Shown piece by piece: positions 6,729 to 64,000 of a stretch of DNA of 64,000 nt. Position 1 is the stretch's first letter. Each line of letters opens with the position of its first letter. A model generated the notes under the pieces. That model was not told the origin of the DNA. It made no database searches and saw nothing but the letters and a program-made list of their open reading frames with translations. A program made the position numbers and the translations under genes. The DNA is from Neophaeotheca triangularis (lineage: Eukaryota), in contig BAAIJX010000058.1 of NCBI GenBank assembly GCA_054600435.1, forward strand, positions 1-64,000. Direction: 5' to 3'.

Positions 6729-7986
6729 ATTTTAAGATTTGAGGCGGATTGTGGTTGTGGAAGGTGATGCCTACTTTATTACGAGTATGAAGAAATATGA
6801 GACATTTCTGTCATCTCTCCCTCGCTATGGCTGAGGGGGATTTTGGACAGAATAGGGCAAGGTATAGATAGATATGGAATCGAATCGAACGAAGAATTGA
6901 CACGATAATGCAACCTGCTGCCGTGCGCTGCTTCCCCCCTTTTGCTGCTCCCTTTTCGCTCTGTCGCGCTCTCGTTCGTGAGTGCTGAGTGATGAGTGTT
7001 GGGTGTCGATTCCTTTGAGACGACGGTCTTGTAGGTCTTGGGCTGTGAAGCTATACAAAGCCAGCCACCTTCTGAAACTCGCGGTGCCTGCCTGGTCTTG
7101 TCAACAACCTTCTGTAAAAATCAGTACCAATTTTTGCGTGTGACGAGTCTGTTTTCGTCGACTCCGTTTTGTCTTGAGTTCTTCGTTCTCGGTTATATGT
7201 ACATCTATTTATATTTAGGGGGTCTATAGGTTGTGTTGTTAACAGGAAGAGGTAGGTGGTGCTATTGCTGGCGTTGATGGGTGGGTGAGTGAGTGAGTCA
7301 GTGAGTGGAGGGAGGGTTTTGGGGGTTTAGTGGGTTTGGTGGCTACTCACCTACCTACCTACTTGCCTGCCTGCCTGCCTGCCTGCCTGCCTACCTACGT
7401 ACCTATCTCCCTATCTACCTACATACCAGGATACCTACTGACTTTCCCACGCACCCTTGTCTTTGTCAAACATCCAGGTCTCTACTGAAGAGATAATTTG
7501 GATTCTTGCCGGTGTGTCGAGGCCGGCGTGGGTTGTCTCTCATGTCGAGGTTGTAGTAATTTTCACATCCATGGCATTTTTGGCCGTGTAGTCGTTTAGG
7601 ACGTGATTTCTACGCTGTTTTGGAAACGACAAAGAGCTTTGGAAGGCGGGAAGAGTAGCATAAGGGTGTCATGGTGTTGGACAAATGTTGCATGCGATGA
7701 AGACGGAGCCGTCGTGATCCACTATCGCAGTTCGGAATGCTTGCAAACTATGTATACGCGGAACCCAGGACGCACTTGTGGCCTTCTTTCGCGTCCACTC
7801 AGCCTTATTCAAAGCTTTCGTACTCCTCAACCCTGGGCCTCAAGATTAAGCTCTTGTGTGTGTAAAGAACACAAGAGAAGATACAGATCAGTCAGATTCA
7901 TTTCTATTTTTGCCTCAGTACAAACCCCAACCCCAACCCCAACCCTAAACCCCCTTCTTCCCTCGCACGCCCCCCGTACAAATCTT

Positions 7987-18510: not shown

Positions 18511-18589
18511 ACGGTTATAGTCCAGAGGTTAGGATATCTGGCTTTCAAGCAGAGCCCAGAAGACCCGAGTTCGAACCTCGGTAACCGTG
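18511..18589 (+). tRNA. tRNA-Glu(UUC) with a 7-nt intron (18548-18554)
   Basis: Hand-folded cloverleaf: acceptor ACGGTTA/TAACCGT, D arm GTCC/GGAT, anticodon stem TCTGG/CCAGA with CT-TTC-A, T arm CCGAG-TTCGAAC-CTCGG; T-run about 30 nt downstream. Confidence 0.88.
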
Positions 18590-40794: not shown

Positions 40795-40865
40795 TACATA
40801 CATACATACATACATACATACATACATACATACATACATACATACATACATACATACATACATAC
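40795..40865. repeat. (TACA)n microsatellite in the divergent NHP2/NTH1 intergenic region
   Basis: About 17-18 perfect units, directly visible. Confidence 0.95.
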
Positions 40866-40980
40866 GTAAATTCATCTAATCTGCGAGAGGAGGTGGGTTG
40901 TCGATGGATTGCATCACACTTCATTGCCAATAAGGAAGACATCGCGCATATCACGCGACACGGCGCGGATCGTCAAAGCC

Positions 40981-48253: not shown

Positions 48254-49929
48254 TCAACCCCCTCTCCCGGCAGCAAAAGCCCCAGGCGCAACGACAACAA
48301 CGACAACCAAGCTGGCGACGACCAACGCGCAAGCGAGCAAACTGACCAAAACGATGGAACCGCGAGACGCCGGGAACTTGCCGCGAATCACGTAGTGTTG
48401 GGCTTCAAAATAGCGGTGGAAACCGAGGAGGAGGATGAGGATGGCTGCAAGCCGAGCGAAGCGGTTAGCTGGGTGTTTGCCTGTGTTCACTTGCTTCTCG
48501 TGTCTGGGGGTATTACGATGGTGGGACTAGGACATGGGAAGGGAGAGGGCACGTACAGATTCCCAAGAATGTGGCACCGAGGGGTTTTCCCACTTGCCGT
48601 AACTTATCCTCGTTAGCGAAGGGTGGTGCGTGGTCGTGGACTTGTCGTTGTTCTAGTAGTGATGATGACAGTAGTGATGAGGAAGTAGAATGCAAGTTTG
48701 CGGCCGTATTAACTGAAACTTGGTCTTCGGGCTCGTTGAGACTGGTGTTGAGGCGGAAGAGCTGCGTGATGGCTATGCCGATGGAGGCGAAAGCTAGGGA
48801 GGTGCGTAGCCAGGCGAGGAAAGTGCGCTCTTTCCGACCGTTAGTACTGGGAGTAGGAGGGAGTTATGACGGGTGGAGGGCACTTACCCAGTGCTAGATG
48901 GTCTCGCGCGACGGAGCCTTTGTTCTCGAGCTCCACGCTGCCGTATTTGTCTATTAAACTCTTGAACCATCCCTCTTGCTCATTGCTGGCATCGTCGCTC
49001 TCTCTCTCTCGCCCGGACACCTGCGCATCCCCTTGTACACTCCCCCTCCCGCCCACACCAGCGCTCTTCCCTCTGAGACTGGACCCCGCCCCACTCCCAC
49101 CAGCACCGCCCTTTCTCCTCCTGGCACCACCCCAATTCATATCCTCCTCTCCAGCTCCATCATACTCCCCTTCACCACCCAGCGCACCATATCCCCCACC
49201 AGCAGCCCCAACCCCTCTGACTCCACCAGATCCCCGTCGAAAAATTGCCGTATTCTCATCCGCACTACTCTCACCCCCGCCCTCGCCATCCCTATACCCA
49301 TCCCCACCGGCCATCTTCGTCCTCAACTCCGGACTCTGCCTCCCCAGGCCAGAAGATGACGAGGAAACCCAGCTAGCCTGACGCTGTGTAGTTGACGAAC
49401 CCGTAACCCCAGCCGCAGGAGTCTGCGTCTGACTAGGCAAAAAAGTCACACTCTTGGCACTCGCCGCTCTAGACAACTTGCCCTCCTCTCGCTTCCCTTG
49501 AACAGCAGCAGCGGACGTAGAAACAGAGGACGTTGTCCTCCCCGCCTCCCTCTCCTCAAGCTTGCCTTTCCCCTTTCCCCTCCCAGCCCCAACCCCAGGC
49601 CACGGAAACCTCTCCCCCTCTGCCCTTCCCGGGCTCGTCGAAGCCGAAACCGGTAAACTGGGCCGGCTCAGATTATCCACCGTCCTTAACTTAGGATCCG
49701 CGGGCCCGGCTCTAGGAGTTGTGAGGGAGTCGTCCGAGTCCTCCTCTTCCTCTTCCGCCTCTTCCTGAGCTTGTGGTCGTGTGAAGGAGTTGGGGGATTG
49801 CGGGTTTCGAGGTTGTTGGTGCTGTTGGGTCCGCTCTTCGTCGGACGAGGGTGACTGGCTGGGGGGTTGCGAGTAGGAGGCTTCGGATGAGGGCGCCGAG
49901 TGGGAGACTGGGGAGCAGGGGAGGGGCAT
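48254..49929 (-). CDS. DUF202 membrane protein with a long disordered N-terminus; exons 49929-48888, 48829-48557, 48444-48254
   Basis: LENKGSVARDHLAL|ERTFLAWLRTSLAFASIGIAITQLFRL, GKPLGATFLGI, RYFEAQHYVIRGKFPASRG. Confidence 0.88.
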
Positions 49930-55443: not shown

Positions 55444-55908
55444 TCAGCCAAGTTGCTGCTTGCTACCACCCTCTCCCTCTCGCTCCTCTGTCCTTTTCTT
55501 CCTCTTCCCCCCATCATTCTCAAGTACCAGCAAAGTCCCCGCAAAGGCCACGCCAATGCAAGTCGCAGCCATTAGACTGACCCCCACAATGTTGGGTTGG
55601 AAATTGCCTTGCTGCAGGTGTCTCAGCGACGCAAAATACCTCTGCGTACCATGACCCACGCAAAGGCTACCACTTCCGACCAACACTGCCGCCGCAACTC
55701 TAGTGTTGCTATCCTGGAGCTGCAATAGCTGAGGCGACAGTGCAGCGAAAGCCTCGACTTTCTCCAGAGCAATGCCGAGGGCTATGAACCCCAGGCCGCT
55801 TCGAGCCCATGCTAGGAATGTTCGTTCGCTCGCCAGCATGTCGCGCGCTATAGAGCCTGTGTTTTTCATGGGTCCCGCCCGGAATGTTGAGAGGATTTGT
55901 CGAAACAT
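55444..55908 (-). CDS. small DUF202 membrane protein
   Basis: NTGSIARDMLASERTFLAWARSGLGFIALG and three hydrophobic segments. Confidence 0.87.
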   Translation of the reverse strand: MFRQILSTFRAGPMKNTGSIARDMLASERTFLAWARSGLGFIALGIALEKVEAFAALSPQLLQLQDSNTRVAAAVLVGSGSLCVGHGTQRYFASLRHLQQGNFQPNIVGVSLMAATCIGVAFAGTLLVLENDGGKRKKRTEEREGEGGSKQQLG

Positions 55909-56884
55909 GTTGACCTGATTTGCCCGGTTCTTAGCTTTTGTGTTAGGCGGTGATCAGTTTCTGTCAACTGACTCTTCGCGGCGAGGCGAAACCAACACAC
56001 TTTCTGAATCCGAGCTGTACAAAATTACGTGGAAGGCTCCCTCGGGTCAACTGTTGTGTCTTTCCGGATATGTTGCATGGCGTTCGTACTACTCATCATA
56101 GGGTTGAGCTCCGGGAGAAGAGCGATAAGCGCAAGGACCATCCTCAGTGGAGACGGAAGCTGCTAGCATTCGCGTTCATACCAAGGGACAGCGACTACTT
56201 CATCTTCCCCGGTCCGGGTTTACACCCACTAGAAGCTACTAACAGACAAGATGCGGTCAGGGATTTAGACAATACAGATCTGTATAGAAAGGTGGTTACT
56301 GACTCCGAGTCTCCGAGTGCATACGAACATACTAGTTTCGATACGGCGAACGGGCAGTCGATTGCGGCTTTGCGGGCGAGCAGGAGTCGTGTCGAACGTT
56401 TGTGTTTTGATTCTTAACACCGTCAGATAATACAGAAACGATGCCAAAGGACAACCTCACTGGTCGACAGAGGCTTGACATGCCCGAACAGACACAAACA
56501 CGAAACGGAGAGAGATCGCAGCTAGCGCAGGAACCGAAAAAAGCCAATCTGTGTGATCGGAACGCTAATGCGCGCACTATCTGTCTCTACTGCGTCACCG
56601 ATCTCGCTCTTCTTCACGCCTTTCTGACAGATCGCGTGCTAATCACCGGAAACGCGGTACTGTTTGGCCATCACATTGTGACATCTGCATGATCCAGGAC
56701 CTTATTTTGTACTATCGTCGGCGTCACTGCTTGTCACAGCGTCCAGTCGAGGTAAGTAGTCGTCCAGTGGGTGCCCATGGCGTGTTTCGTCTCATTCCAC
56801 TTCCACCTTGCCAATCTACTTTGTTGTCTTTGCCATTCTAGGTCCCTCTTAGGACTATAGCCCCCCCTCGATTCACGTCTCAAC

Positions 56885-58420
56885 ATGTCCAAACCTACCT
56901 TTTCAGCTCCTTTCGAGGTCCTGGACTTTTACTGCGACAGCGACGACAGCTGCGCTCTCACTGCTCTCATCAACAATGTTCGGTTTCACGTCATTGCCGA
57001 AAGCTCCAAAGTGAGAAGTGGCAAGCCAGGTCAGGAATACTCAAAGCTTCTACAAGCTGTGAAAAAAGCGAGTCAAGACGATATGGAGGAAGGAACAGCG
57101 ACCGCCGACAGCGCCGACAGCGGTGTTGAGCTGGGCAACGAAGAGGCAGCTCATTCGGAGGCAACCAAAGATCGTCAGGAAGTCACGCCCAACGCCGAAG
57201 AGAAGCTGCATCGATGGTTACTCAGTCCGCTCGATTCTGATATCGAAGAGCTTGCCCCGCAACTTCAGGCAGAGGACAAGCCGACCCTACAAGACTGGTT
57301 CACCGGAGAAACCCACTACTTCGACCTTGCCTCTTCCGATGGAGGAGTTGTTGCAACCGAACTCGAGGAAGTCGACGAGTTATCAAAACGTCTATCCCGC
57401 CTTCTTCCCGCGATCACCGTGCCAAAATATGTTCGCGAGGTCCAAACACCGTACTTTGCAGCCTCTGATCTCACTGTACTATCCGCCGGCGCAGCCATGG
57501 GACCATACACGCGGCCCACCCTCGTCCGAGACCCAAACGGCAACAAGCGCTTTCTCAAACTCATCGACCCTACCCAACCCGCTCCAACGAAGCGAGAAAT
57601 CTCTCTACTTGCCAAACTCAAGTCTAAGAACCTCCATACCAAGATCCGCTGCCCCGAGCTCACTGGACTCGTAGGCACGACACCAAATACTCGCACGCAA
57701 ATCGCTGGCTTCTTGCAAACCCCAATCCCCGACCCCACGCCCTTGACCGCTAAGCTCGACACCGACGTCCCACAAACTCTCCGCGACGCCTGGGCGGATG
57801 AAGCCGAACGCATCGTCACTACTCTCCATGACCATGGAATTGTATGGGGTGACGCAAAGGCTGACAACTTCATCGTCGACGACCACGACAGGCTATGGAT
57901 CATCGATTTCGGCGGAAGTTACACCGAGGGCTGGGTCGATCCTGCTATCAAGGAAACGGAAGAAGGCGATGAGATGGGGGTCGAGAAGATAGAAAATGCA
58001 TTGCATGATCCTGAGCACAACACTTGGGATCCGGATACGGAAGTTTCGTATGGGGGAAGCCATCGCAATAGCGAGAGCGAAAGCCAAGCCGTGGAGGTGG
58101 CGAATAGCAGGGGAAAGAGGGGTCACGAGGACGTAGACAGCGATGCTGAGACGGATGTGGGAGAAGGTACAAACGAGGTCTCTACTGGAAACAAGCGGCG
58201 GAGGACCAGCTCGCCGCCTGCGTCTCCCCTCGCGTCAGAGGTAGCGGTGAACTGGGAGAAAGAGCAGCCGCTGTACTGCTACTGCCACAAGCCGAGCTCG
58301 GGCCGTATGGTTGGTTGCGATGGAGATGATTGCAAGCAGGAGTGGTTCCATTTTGAGTGTGTTGGGCTGAATCAGGCGCCTGCGGAAGGCGAGGAGTGGT
58401 ATTGCAAGGACTGCGTGTAA
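56885..58420 (+). CDS. atypical protein kinase-like domain fused to a C-terminal ING-type PHD finger
   Basis: RFLK and REI, LHDHGIVWGDAKADN, IIDFGG; YCYC..MVGCD..C..EWFHFECVGL..WYC..C. Confidence 0.85.
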   Translation: MSKPTFSAPFEVLDFYCDSDDSCALTALINNVRFHVIAESSKVRSGKPGQEYSKLLQAVKKASQDDMEEGTATADSADSGVELGNEEAAHSEATKDRQEVTPNAEEKLHRWLLSPLDSDIEELAPQLQAEDKPTLQDWFTGETHYFDLASSDGGVVATELEEVDELSKRLSRLLPAITVPKYVREVQTPYFAASDLTVLSAGAAMGPYTRPTLVRDPNGNKRFLKLIDPTQPAPTKREISLLAKLKSKNLHTKIRCPELTGLVGTTPNTRTQIAGFLQTPIPDPTPLTAKLDTDVPQTLRDAWADEAERIVTTLHDHGIVWGDAKADNFIVDDHDRLWIIDFGGSYTEGWVDPAIKETEEGDEMGVEKIENALHDPEHNTWDPDTEVSYGGSHRNSESESQAVEVANSRGKRGHEDVDSDAETDVGEGTNEVSTGNKRRRTSSPPASPLASEVAVNWEKEQPLYCYCHKPSSGRMVGCDGDDCKQEWFHFECVGLNQAPAEGEEWYCKDCV

Positions 58421-58945
58421 GGCGTCCTATCTTTTGGATGGAGCAGGGCATCAACGCAGAGGCGGGACATCCAGCTTCAGGAACATACATCAGCGCGTTA
58501 GCGCCTGCCTTGCCCGCTATGCGACCTTACAGGCTCACCCTCCTTAGAAAGGACTTCTACCGAGAAGGATGCTAGGGCGAGCTTGCTCTCTCTGACCAAC
58601 CAATTGATCCCAGACCACGACTAACGCCTTTAGTGAACTCTCGAAGCTGATTGCAACCTTCCACATGTCAGCAAGCCAATGCTCTGAACATGCAATCTTC
58701 ATGCCAAGGTCAGCGTCAGCTTGCCAAGCAAAATGCCCGGTACAGTCAGATCTTCTCATGAGGAGTGGGACAATAGTCCAGCAATAGAAGCTGCGGACTC
58801 GGGGAAGCGTTACATAAAAGATGCAGTCCTCTGTACCCGCTTGATCGTGGGTGATGTCGCCTTGCTCTTGTTCGATAGTCTTAATCAAAAACTATAGCCT
58901 ATACCCTCCCCTCCACCTACTGAGCACAAGCCGCCTCTCGCCATC

Positions 58946-60004
58946 ATGTCCAACGATGCAACTTCCCAACTCCAGCCTCTCCGGCTCATGGTCATCGACA
59001 GCCCACGAACAACTTGTCACATGTTCTACAAGCTGTTCCAGTCACATCCCCAGCTCGCTTGGGGTCGCTTCTACCATGGCTTCAACGCACACCAGGCTTA
59101 CGGGAAACAGCGCATAACTACCAAGCTCCGCCATAGACCCGCTGTCGAGCAGGCCATTGAAAAGACATGGATCAAGCCTTACGAAGAAGACGCGGAAATC
59201 CAAAAGACATGGCCACCAAATTTGGAGTCGTGCGTAGCCAACTTCCGCGCCGCAGTTGAAACGAGCGAATCCGAGGGCAAAATCTTCTTCGGCAAAGAGC
59301 ATGCCAACTTCTTGCTCAAGCAAGACCTCATACTTGCCCTCCTGCGATCCAGCGACGAAGACAAGCCCTTTGAACCTCCAGCTGAGAATCCGACACACAT
59401 TCCCGAGGACCTGGTGAAGACGCTGAAGCCCATCTTCATCGTCCGCCATCCCGTCCTTCGGATGGACTCGTTCTGGCGCTCCGAGCAGACTTCTGTGGGT
59501 CTGAACTTGCAGCCCACAGACGAATACTTCGAGTACCTGATGACGCTGAAGTGGGCGCGCGTGTTATACGACTACTTCAACGAGACGCTAGGTATAGAGC
59601 CAGTGGTCCTTGACTCGGACGACTTCGTGTACTCGACGAAAGCCACCATGGACAACTTATGCGCGATGCTCGGGCTCGATCCGGAGGGTGTCAAGGATGA
59701 ATGGGATCCCGTGCCCAAGGAGTCTTGGCCGAAAAGCGAGGTTTCCAAAGTGTTCCTCGGTGATTTGCTCTCGAGCCGAGGAGTCATAAGGAATGCTGAG
59801 GTCAGTAGTTGCTTTCGCGTTTTGTGATCAGGCATCAGGTTGGCTTCTAATACCGAACAGCGTCCGTCATGCGATATCGATGTTCGAACGGAGCAGTGGG
59901 AGGGGCTTTACGGCGCAGAGACGGCAACTGCTTTGAGGAAATCAGTCGAAGCGGAGTTGTCGGACTATGAATACCTTTGGGAGAAGAAGATCAGACCGAC
60001 ATGA
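58946..60004 (+). CDS. sulfotransferase-like P-loop-fold protein; exons 58946-59800, 59861-60004
   Basis: SPRTTCHMF, FFGKEH, PIFIVRHP, PVVLDSDD; the second exon supplies the typical ...DYEYL end. Confidence 0.75.
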
Positions 60005-60170
60005 CTAGGGAATAGCATGGTTATATGCTGACAGGGCGGTGCTTACATCGTTCCTTGATGAAAGTACGTATCATCTCATCATCAGTTTTCATTAGCATGA
60101 ATCAATTCGCAATTTTTGCCAAGTGCTACGATCTCCGAAATCATTCCAGCAACGGCCACACAGCCCAACA

Positions 60171-61146
60171 CTACACCATTACCGTGGTCATCAAAAATTG
60201 TGGGTTTGCAGTCAGTCGTTCCTTGAGGCTGAGAAGCTCATCAACGTCCCATTGCGCCCACACGTAACGCCCAGAGAGGAACTTGGCTTCTGCGCTGGCC
60301 AACCAGACGGCAAAGTCGCCGGGGAGGCTTGCTACGGCACGGTGTCAGCCACATACGATCAAACGGACTGTAAGAAGGATCACCGCAGCCTACCATCTTC
60401 CCAAACTACGACGTCCCGGTCAAAAAGCTGGGATGCCCATGGGGTATAGACGACGCCGGGGTGGAAAGTCTGTATGACAGCGTTGTCATCCGCGTACTCC
60501 ATGGCCAAGTGTTGGATGACTTGATTCATGGCGGCTTTGGACGGGCCATATGCTGAGTCGTTGGCACTACCAGTCTGGCATCTAGCGGAAGACGTGTAGA
60601 TCACGGTCCTTGGTTTGCCCGGCTCCAGAGCGAGAAACTCTTTGATCAAGTGCCAGCTACTGACGACGTTGAGATTGAAAGTGTCGCGAAAGACTTCGGT
60701 GGGCATGTCTTTTGCCGCCATTTCCCCAGGGCCAATGCCAGCATTCGCGACCAGGACGTCGATCTTGCCAATCTCCTTGAGGATGGAGGAGATGCGCTCA
60801 AAGTCCGTGACCGAAGCGGCACGAGTGGTGACTTTCAAGCTTGGAAAGTCGGTCGCAAGGGATTCCCTCACTTTGTCCAGGACTTTCTGTCTGCGCTGGA
60901 TGATGATGACATACTCGACGCCGGCTTTGGCGAAAGATTGAGTGATGCCGAAGCCAATGCCAGTGGCTGGGGGTGGTTAGTACTCGCCAAACGGAGCTTC
61001 TCGGTCAGCCTACCAACCTCCGGCTGTGATCAAGACTGTCTTTCCTGTTCCATCGAATGTCTGTAAAGGCGAAATGCGATCATAAGTCGTATGATGATAG
61101 GTTTTGATCTCGGTAGGCCAAGGAAAGTCAAGCTAGAAAGGTCCAT
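60171..61146 (-). pseudogene. short-chain dehydrogenase/reductase with an apparent 1-nt frameshift after codon 4; introns 61017-60967 and 60393-60332
   Basis: TVLITAG|ATGIGFG, DVLVANAG, YGPSK catalytic motif, [31 protein letters not shown]; the ATG at 61146 is out of frame with the body. Confidence 0.7.
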
Positions 61147-62310
61147 CTTCGCGAGTGTGGAATATTCAAGTCTTTCGGTTGGTGCAGTTGTTTTGAAGCA
61201 AAGGATGAGGGTTGCGATGATCTTTTACGCGATATCTGTGTCGAAGGGATAGAAACCGGCACTGAAGAATCAAGGCGTCTACTTATATAAGTTGGACGTG
61301 GACATATGGAAGGAGAATACGGCTGTATGGTAACCCCGTTCCTAGTCGTGTGATGAGACGTCGCGATGATTGTCTAGAGCTTACAAACATTCCGCAAGAT
61401 GACATGATATGTGCGAGATTCCAGCTGAGAGTGCATATGCGTGTCAGACATGGAATCCTTCGAGTAGATTGTAAAGCAGTCGACAATAGGCAAGCCTGGG
61501 AAGAGTAGTAGTAAGTTGAGGCATGTTGCGAAAGAGAGCGGAACGCGCAGCATAGATGACAACTTCGGCGGTGCAAGTCCGCTCGCAAGTGTAAGCAATA
61601 ATGTGTAAGCACACCGGAATGGGCCTTGGTCAAATGTCGCATGTTGGAGCCTGCATTGTTCAGATGACCATAGCATCCCAAGATGCTACAGGAGTTAGCT
61701 ATACCCCCTATCCCGACTTGTTAGCCTCGATCTTCTGAGAATAATCAATAATCAACATCTTTGGCAGTCCACCCGGCAAAATGTTTCGACGACGGCGAGA
61801 TTCTCGTAGCATCAAAGCCGCCGTATGACCACCAAACAGGCCTTGATAGACGTTCCATGTCCGCCTACGGCCCAAGCTGAACTACGTCTCGGCCGAAAGT
61901 GAAGCTGCCCTTCTAGCAACAGAGTCTATAGTAGCATTGCTTATTCGATGCGTTGTTGGTTGTATAAGAGCGATGCCGACGCCCTCCCCCAAATAGAAGA
62001 AAAGGTCCGTTTGGTACGGCCCTCCATGCCTTTCGTGTGGCCTCGCGAGCGGTGACCTGAGGGGCGAAGCTGCAGTCACCCGTCGAGCGTTGCGCGCGAT
62101 GTCTTGGGTGTTATGCCGATGCTACAAACGGGTTGCTTTTTGGACGTCGTGGCTCGCAGGTCGCAGATAAGTATGGACGAAGAGTTCCATCCAAACCTGT
62201 AAGTTGAAGTGGCAACTTTTAGAACGGTCGGTGGACAACGACAGTGTTTCGTCCCAGCCGAGAAAGACGCGCGAGTGCGAGTGCAATTGCAGTGGTTCCT
62301 GATCAGAGAA

Positions 62311-62460
62311 ATGGCGCCCTCGATCCCAAATCACGACTACTATTCCATCCTTGAGGTGACGCAAAGTGCTACTCGTGAGTTGATCACGAAGTCCTACAGA
62401 CGACTGGCGCTCGAACGTCATCCGGATCGCAAGAACGGCTCCACACAAGCGTTTCAGCTA
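62311..62460 (+). pseudogene. first exon of a J-domain (DnaJ) gene, truncated or interrupted in intron 1
   Basis: MAPSIPNHDYYSILEV...ITKSYRRLALERHPDRKNGSTQAFQL, then a GTACGT donor; the expected helix III/IV continuation is not found downstream. Confidence 0.8.
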
Positions 62461-62779
62461 GTACGTTTATCAATTTCGACTGTCGGCCATACTTACCTTG
62501 GGGACATTTCAGCGATTTCTGAAATTCGAATTCCGAGAACTTGGATTCTTGAATCTCTATATGTTTTACAGGACCGTTAACTATGGTGTTCTTCGTCTCA
62601 ATTCAGCGTACGCGGGGTTTTCAGCTTTATATACTTCCGTTTTTATTAACAACACCACTCTACGATTGCCGAGACAACTCGGTAAAGTCTAGACGAACTA
62701 GGGATAGCGAGACGACTCTTATCGAGATGACTCTACGATGTCGAGACTCCGTTGCATTGTAAGAGGTAAGGTAGTCATA

Positions 62780-63568
62780 TTTTAAGAGGTCGTCGCCGCA
62801 TTTTGAGAGGCCGTCGCATTTCGAGACATCGTTGTATTTCGAGAGGCTATCGTATTTTGAGACATCATCGTATTTCGAGAGGCCGTCGCCGCATTTCGAG
62901 AGGCGGTCGTCGTATTTTGAGAGGCCGTCACATTTCGAGAGGCCATCGCATTTCGAGAGGCCGTCGCCGTATTTCGAGACATCGTTACATTTCGAGAGGC
63001 CGTCGCCGCATTTTGAGACATCGTTGCATTTCAAGAGGCCGTTACATTTTAAGAGGCCGTCGTCGTATTTCAAGAGGCCGTTATCGCATCTTAAGAGGCC
63101 GTCGTATTTCGAGAGGCTATCGCATTTTAAGAGGCCGTTACATTTCGAGAGGCCGTCGTCGCATTTCGAGAGGCTATTATCGCATTTTTAGAGGCCGTCG
63201 CATTTCAAGAGGTAAGGTAGTCGCATTTCGAGAGGCCGTTACATTTCAAGAGGCCGTCGTCGCATTTTAAGAGGCCGTCGCATTTTAAGAGGTAAGGTAG
63301 TTACATTTCGAGAGGCTATCGCCATACTTTAAGAGGCCGTCGTCGCATTTCTAGAGGCCGTCGCATTTCGAGAGGCCGTCGTATTTTGAGAGGCCGCGGC
63401 CGCATTTTAAGAGGCTATCGTTATATTTCGAGAGGCCGTTACATTTTAAGAGGCTGTCGCATTTTAAGAGGCCGTCGCATTTTGAGATGTTATCGCATTT
63501 CAAGAGGCCGTTACCGCTTCTCGAGAGGCCGTCGTATTCCGAGAGGTCGTAGTCGCATTTCGAGAGAT
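62780..63568 (+). repeat. minisatellite array, consensus CGCATTTCGAGAGGCCGT(CGT), 18/21-bp units
   Basis: Dozens of consecutive units differing mainly by C>T and G>A changes. Confidence 0.95.
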
Positions 63569-63772
63569 TATAGTTGTACTAAGAGGTTTTAAGAGGGGTA
63601 TAGCCGACGGTTAGGTATAACTAGAACTTATATAACTATAACTTTGCAAAATAAATAAGAAGATTATAGTATACGTACGAACAAGGTACGAACGAGATTG
63701 CAATGTTTATAAAACAAAAGAGCAAAAGCGCGGAGAAATTCGAATTAAGACGAAAGACGCTATAGTTAACGG

Positions 63773-64000
63773 CGTCGCATTTCGAGAGGCCGTCGCATTT
63801 CAAGAGGCCGTTATCGCATTTCGAGAGGCTATTATCACATTTTAAGAGGCCGTTATATTTCGAGAGGCTATTATATTTTAAGAGGCTGTCGTCGCATTTT
63901 AAGAGGCCGCGAGTCATCGAATTTCGAGACATTGCTGTATTTCGAGAGGCCGTCGTATTTCGAGAGGCTGTCGTGTTTTGAGAGGCTGTCGCATTTTGAG
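63773..64000 (+). repeat. second block of the same minisatellite, running off the window
   Basis: Same unit and orientation, after a ~200-bp AT-rich spacer. Confidence 0.93.

Follow-up and report, generated by a model that had tools for sequence, protein, structure and literature searches.

Hephaestus-family Starships, which have a DUF3435 captain and TTAC direct repeats, integrate at the target TTAC(N7)A, the N7-A being described as part of the target downstream of the element (PMC10104507), and TTAC is given as the conserved direct-repeat core of this family (PMC11162782). For Starships more generally, a captain at the 5' end, a low copy number and a lack of conserved structural features are described (PMC11162782). 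Filamentous ascomycetes also carry non-autonomous TIR/MITE-like transposons degraded by repeat-induced point mutation (RIP), with the Epichloe MITEs as an example of the elements (PMC3227409) and Mycosphaerella graminicola as an example of a transposon landscape (PMC4522978). On the side of the host gene, the closest described proteins are J-proteins of fungi in which an N-terminal J domain is followed by a coiled-coil part and a Cys-rich C-terminus, such as KAK0302490.1 of Friedmanniomyces endolithicus, KAK4508783.1 of Zasmidium cellare, PPJ59568.1 of Cercospora berteroae and TVY85436.1 of Lachnellula suecica.

The locus described here lies at the right end of a 64,000-nt stretch of DNA, which we call the window and which was analyzed over its full length. 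A preliminary description had proposed that a Starship is inserted at the branch point of a J-protein intron, and what it stated of the literature (TTAC repeats, and TTAC(N7)A for Hephaestus) is correct according to PMC10104507 and PMC11162782. Part of its proposal stands, as repeated, probably mobile DNA does start in the first intron and the remainder of the gene is not found in the window. The TTAC, however, is not the boundary, and the visible DNA consists of a multi-copy end and a TIR-bounded, RIP-like minisatellite unit with no captain.

Results

The Window Is Housekeeping-Gene-Dense up to the J-Protein Exon

The window is fungal, and its left 62 kb are dense in housekeeping genes, among them those for a transketolase, a CFEM protein, CDC14/SIN, KTI12, a polyprenyl synthase, an HhH-GPD glycosylase, L7Ae, a DEAD-box helicase, an AMP-binding enzyme and a short-chain dehydrogenase; the nearest Atlas clusters of the KTI12 ORF are from Ascomycota. 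The sole Rfam match above the gathering score in the window is a tRNA gene at 18511-18589 on the plus strand (Rfam tRNA, 58.6 bits, E 4.3e-10). A perfect (TACA)n microsatellite occupies 40795-40866, closely upstream of the ORF for the HhH-GPD glycosylase, some 45 nt near the window start (124-168) form a poly-C run, and DUF202 domains occur in two separate minus-strand ORFs 7 kb apart (48516-48863 and 55447-55953). The features around the junction at the right end are collected in Table 1.

Table 1. Features of the J-protein exon and of the repeated DNA to its right
Feature	Position	Strand	Basis
J-protein exon 1, helices I-II with HPD	62311-62460	+	Pfam DnaJ profile, family alignment
Start of conserved intron, GTACGT donor plus 11 nt, unique DNA	62461-62477	+	Sequence; X1 record 1, 0 differences
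Terminal module of dispersed repeat; holds TACTTAC/TTAC(N7)A (62490-62504) and AG 62511-62512	62478-62573		X1 contigs
Left inverted-repeat arm	62574-62604	+	26/31 complementary to 63742-63772
Subterminal unique and degenerate-repeat stretch (CGAGAC-type units)	62605-62796		Sequence
Minisatellite array 1, unit GCATTTCGAGAGGCCGTC with optional extra triplet (18 or 21 nt)	62797-63566	+	TRF
AT-rich spacer, strongest RIP-like signature	63567-63741		Dinucleotide indices
Right inverted-repeat arm	63742-63772	-	Complementarity to left arm
Minisatellite array 2, unit and orientation as array 1, runs off window end	63773-64000	+	TRF

Exon 1 and the Intron Position of Its Gene Family

The start codon of exon 1 is the ATG at 62311 and the last of its 50 codons closes at 62460, giving the peptide MAPSIPNHDYYSILEVTQSATRELITKSYRRLALERHPDRKNGSTQAFQL, which has MAPS at its N-terminus and HPDRKNGSTQAFQL at its C-terminal end. 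It matches positions 1-39 of the 63 positions of the Pfam DnaJ profile (PF00226) with 46.4 bits and an E value of 4.2e-12, where the cut-off is 27.8 bits, and includes the HPD motif; helices III and IV are not in the window. The clean J-domain exon with HPD that had been reported from the sequence is thus borne out. A phmmer search with exon 1 returned 1430 proteins at E 0.001 or better. In many of the best 150 of these 1430, residues 1-50 align from the protein's own residue 1, with an identity of at most 72% among the matches listed, and fungal J-proteins of 340-460 aa are 60-72% identical to these residues at their N-termini. Exon 1 resembles the fungal J-proteins named above in this alignment from residue 1, in the 60-72% identity and in the same AFQL end point; it differs from them in that the window lacks everything beyond helix II. 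A protein word search with the 50 residues of exon 1 against longer proteins gave four candidates, none of which scored.

For the family alignment, which holds 12 relatives and the window's read-through ORF, 13 sequences were retrieved from the best 150 of the 1430 matches. The string [LI]xxAYETLKDxxxRRxYDLIYP comes after AFQL in eight of the 12 aligned relatives; these eight are full-length proteins of 245-464 aa with a long coiled-coil part that includes a KNSW.TW.LSPLYKK motif, and several have a Cys-rich end. Four of the 12 gene models (P0006, P0007, P0039 and P0062) diverge right after FQ[LM] with a V, i.e., a GTN codon, and in P0039 an in-frame insert of 25 aa follows at the same place. 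The V in these four models probably reflects read-through of a GTN donor, so that the intron position would be a feature of the family. Named members come from the Dothideomycetes (Friedmanniomyces, Cladosporium, Zasmidium, Cercospora) and the Leotiomycetes (Lachnellula, Cadophora and one Helotiales species), and by its sequence exon 1 can be assigned to a Pezizomycotina J-protein family with an intron exactly after AFQL.

The Second J Exon Is Absent from the Window

The GTACGT donor (62461-62466), TACTTAC about 30 nt further on (62490-62496) and the string TTAC-CTTGGGG-A (62493-62504) were all confirmed as previously described. Use of the nearest AG (62511-62512) as acceptor yields a 52-nt intron followed by RFLKFEFREL..., and a scan of acceptors agreed with the earlier statement that this splice lacks the expected J-domain continuation: neither helix III nor helix IV was found in any plus-strand frame or behind any acceptor tested within 400 nt. 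In tblastn searches of the window with 17 family proteins, exon 1 was matched by all 17 (E 3e-16 to 3.5e-11), and the best match other than exon 1 had an E value of 0.051. The downstream DnaJ remainder, for which the preliminary description had proposed to look, is therefore not found up to 64000.

Apparent traces of helix III were rejected. The in-frame read-through (VRLSISTV...) was considered as a decayed helix III, but the DnaJ score is 44.7 bits with the read-through and 46.4 bits without it, and tblastn extensions to 62484-62508 contain only two or three chance identities. The 88-aa read-through ORF gave no candidates in a protein word search. The J gene itself is real, but its remainder is missing from the window.

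Repeated DNA Begins Upstream of the TTAC

We aligned contigs of four sequencing runs (X1-X4) to 57000-62796. X1 is probably the window's own source run, as all sampled words are present in it, and its evidence on copy number is genome-wide but not independent. In X1, a 17,333-base contig (record 1) covers 57000-62512 with 0 differences and ends at 62512. Positions 7920-7960 of a 10,240-base contig (record 2) match 62478-62518 with 2 differences; to the left of this match the contig is unlike the window, and to the right it is alignable only with indels. Record 3 covers 62489-62796 and continues to about 63017, and record 4 has 62489-62533 in common with the window, but with an 8-nt insert after 62512 and then a different arrangement. 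In two X1 contigs the letters before 62478 are loose ends unlike the window. The summed depth at 62512 was 870.8 over about seven X1 contigs, compared with 124.7 for a single contig.

The DNA from 62478 on is dispersed and multi-copy, with its left end near 62478 at other loci too; exon 1 is single-copy, as are the 17 nt with which the intron starts. Because 62478-62518 recurs elsewhere with different left flanks, the start of the repeat is placed about 15 nt before the TTAC. The break or insertion at the TTAC of the branch point that had been proposed is not borne out: the shared sequence begins at 62478 and the TTAC at 62493-62496 lies 15 nt inside the repeated part, so it is not the junction. 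An introner-like element was also considered and rejected, as the shared 62478-62518 neither begins at the donor nor ends at the acceptor. No further copies of either repeat module were found within the 64-kb window, and a scan of metagenome_contigs for the 22-nt repeat terminus gave no match.

Differences of Related Runs from the Window

Run X2, which bears the same organism label, differs from the window by 46 differences and 13 gaps over 829 nt. Its 1767-base contig covers 61621-62449, and its 947 further letters do not align to the 347 nt of 62450-62796. None of the X2 contigs aligned on 62450-62571, and no X4 contig aligned anywhere, an outcome that with this alignment method gives no proof of absence. 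In the relative X2, exon 1 thus appears not to be continued by the window's sequence, compatible with a presence/absence difference. In a contig of X3, a phyllosphere metagenome, which is 80-90% alike, 58420-61068 (2647 nt) is replaced by 2109 other letters with both sides collinear; a related organism therefore differs in content over the interval that separates the PHD/kinase-like ORF from the upstream region of the J gene.

An Inverted-Repeat Unit with an Internal Minisatellite

The two 31-nt arms are detected by blastn with an E value of 1.3e-5, all five differences between them are transitions, and a weaker similarity of the arms reaches about 90 nt inward. The left arm marks the end of a second repeat module, because matches of other contigs begin at 62568-62572 (X1 records 5 and 6 and one X2 contig); these are short stretches of 38-84 nt that are 84-85% alike. 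Terminal inverted repeats and several copies with the same ends are therefore present, as in a TIR DNA transposon or MITE. No target-site duplication was found at the inverted-repeat pair, whose flanks TTTTACAGGA and CGTCGCATTT have nothing in common. Compared with the RIP-degraded, non-autonomous TIR/MITE-like transposons of filamentous ascomycetes, the unit is alike in its 31-nt terminal inverted repeats, its length of about 1.2 kb without an ORF, its several copies per genome, its transition-biased decay and its position in or next to genes, but differs in the missing target-site duplication, the internal 18/21-nt minisatellite and the array beyond the right arm. According to the preliminary description, an array running into a known TIR element would speak against a Starship; in form this is what we observed, but with an element that is not among the named ones.

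TRF reported a period of 18 for both arrays, with 39.7 copies in array 1 and 11.8 copies in array 2, which begins directly after the right arm and has 18-mer matches at 63777-63972. At up to 3 mismatches there are 32 matches to the 18-mer, all on the plus strand, against 0.10 expected from shuffles. The array periods (18, 21, 39 and 96) are all multiples of three, and the length variation amounts to one extra GTC or GCC triplet. The consensus unit is open in all six frames, the CpG-to-TpA variants put stops in the actual array, and there is no sign of coding. A protein word search with a 175-aa minus-strand ORF of the array gave 1045 candidates, none of which scored. The degenerate array pattern had no match in metagenome_contigs or viral_contigs, and its sole match in genome_contigs (L001 1690-1850, on the contig of a cyanobacterial MAG) was dismissed as an unrelated, coding 21-nt repeat; it reads AFQEAAEAKQ... 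and stands at the end of an ORF. In X2, the stretch 62657-62716 (about 59 nt) is tandemly duplicated, with joints back 58 and 60, and the subterminal repeat part therefore varies in unit number between isolates.

Transition-Biased Decay of the Repeats

The variant spectrum was taken from the 40 units that depart from the consensus at no more than 4 positions. Transitions make up 84 of the 92 changes and transversions 8; 78 of the 92 are C>T (47) or G>A (31). By context, CpG accounts for 70 of the unit variants and CpA, the typical context of RIP in Neurospora, for 11. The dinucleotide indices of the two unique parts outside the arrays are also shifted: TpA/ApT and (CpA+TpG)/(ApC+GpT) are 1.12 and 0.59 in 62461-62796 and 1.67 and 0.35 in 63567-63772, where the GC content is 0.335, while the remaining 61 kb of the window has 0.74 and 1.15. 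Both the excess of C>T and G>A and indices past the usual RIP thresholds are thus present. The signature is RIP-like, i.e., that of repeat-induced point mutation or of the deamination of methylated cytosines in repeats, and methylated-CpG deamination would fit equally well, since most variants are at CpG rather than CpA. The pattern of decay is compatible with old, multi-copy DNA.

Starship Hallmarks at the Junction

TTAC(N7)A occurs 72 times in the 64 kb (31 on the plus and 41 on the minus strand), and 6.6% of 60-nt stretches contain it on either strand, 2.9% on the plus strand only; the caution, voiced when the motif was first noted here, that so short a match is weak evidence by itself was well placed. 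Pfam searches covered 181 ORFs of at least 100 aa across the window and 25 smaller ones, namely those overlapping 62079-64000, and found no DUF3435 captain, DUF3723, transposase, reverse transcriptase or integrase. This agrees with the earlier observation that no captain gene is in the window, and the DUF3435 profile search proposed with it, run on the ORFs of the window, gave no match. Among the ORFs tested to the right of 62460, no Pfam family was found at all. Telomere repeats, sought as (TTAGGG)2 on both strands, are absent from the window.

A Starship boundary would lie at the TTAC, but here the shared sequence begins 15 nt earlier, and the copy number at 62512 is not that of a low-copy element. 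The site used by Starships of the Voyager/Enterprise type is 5S rDNA, and the junction lies outside any 5S gene: no 5S rRNA or other relevant Rfam match was found in 61800-64000 at E values up to 10. On the same grounds, CGGCCATACTTAC was rejected as the decayed start of a 5S rRNA gene. The locus shares with Hephaestus-family Starships a TTAC(N7)A near the repeat start, a Pezizomycotina host and a broken gene, but differs from them in having its boundary elsewhere than at the TTAC, in a degenerate end that is present in multiple copies, and in showing neither a captain nor a cargo gene within the visible 1.5 kb.

Discussion

We regard an ordinary repeat/transposon junction, at which the first intron of the J gene is interrupted by the end of a non-coding, multi-copy repeat cluster, as the likely explanation (probability about 0.7). 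A cluster that starts with the terminal module 62478-62573, which occurs at several further loci in this genome, would have interrupted a single-copy J gene of a Pezizomycotina family 17 nt after the start of its conserved first intron. The next part would be the unit of about 1.2 kb, a putative non-autonomous TIR/MITE-like element with 31-nt inverted repeats around an 18/21-nt minisatellite, followed by more of the 18/21-nt array extending beyond the window; the repeats bear C-to-T and G-to-A transitions of the RIP type. They may have entered the intron by insertion or by the spread of a repeat island, probably inactivating or at least splitting the J gene, whose missing exons may lie beyond the window or may have been lost. 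The cluster is not a clean single insertion, because there is no target-site duplication and the array resumes after the right arm, and its visible part is one end only. What was observed directly comprises the exon and where the intron lies, the start of the repeat and its presence in multiple copies, the inverted-repeat pair, the minisatellite array and the spectrum of mutations. Searches of the metagenome, viral and genome contig collections and of proteins returned nothing related to either module, and the window holds no transposase.

It is unlikely that the gene still works, either with exon 2 beyond 64000 across a very long intron or with the 52-nt intron 62461-62512 spliced to a repeat-derived tail (RFLKFEF..., with a stop at 62690-62692). 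Exon 1 is intact in its ATG, HPD and canonical donor, and GTACGT...TACTTAC...CAG has the shape of a short fungal intron, but helices III and IV are indispensable for a J domain and no reachable acceptor provides either, the read-through ORF brings no gain in DnaJ score, and introns longer than 1.5 kb are unusual in fungi. An assembly artefact, in which the contig was misjoined through a short sequence common to several loci and another copy truly follows the J intron, is quite improbable. In favor of a misjoin, the X1 contig with the gene stops at 62512, overlapped by record 3 over 24 nt only, and the same 24-nt overlap is also found in record 4, which diverges with the 8-nt insert. Record 1, however, reaches 35 nt into the shared segment (62478-62512) without a difference, so that the junction between the J intron and the repeat family is real whichever copy follows, and record 3 agrees with the path of the window from 62489 to about 63017.

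We consider it very improbable that a giant element with a DUF3435 tyrosine recombinase is inserted at the TTAC in the intron and that the window contains just its outer 1.5 kb; none of the evidence points specifically to a Starship. The TTAC(N7)A at 62493-62504 does agree with the Hephaestus target published in PMC10104507, the host belongs to the Pezizomycotina by its gene family, the gene is broken with the repeat start within 15 nt of the motif, and a captain could lie beyond 64000. Against this, the motif occurs by chance in 3-7% of such stretches and is internal to a shared repeat that begins at 62478. In Hephaestus the N7-A is part of the target on the downstream side (PMC10104507); at a left junction these letters would come from the element itself, which would make their presence here uninformative. 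Low copy numbers are described for Starships (PMC11162782), but the terminal segment is found at several loci in diverged, indel-ridden copies. The visible part is made up of a TIR-bounded minisatellite unit, with no DUF3435, DUF3723 or other Pfam match in it and neither DUF3435 nor DUF3723 elsewhere in the window. Equally, there is very little chance that the modules form the outermost layer of a large cargo element, be it a Starship or another giant transposon, in the J intron; 62478-62573 would then be the conserved end of the family, with small derivative copies scattered in the genome.

For the ordinary repeat junction that we favor, the modules are unclassified members of a familiar kind, and the significance of the locus is mainly one of annotation. 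A 4-nt motif beside a broken gene is unusable as a Starship signal, and what decides is how many copies there are and exactly where the shared sequence begins. If a captain were found nearby, the locus would add one further Starship insertion to a class with many already catalogued. As it stands, the locus is the border between a stretch dense in housekeeping genes and RIP-like repeat DNA, at which the J gene was probably lost or split.
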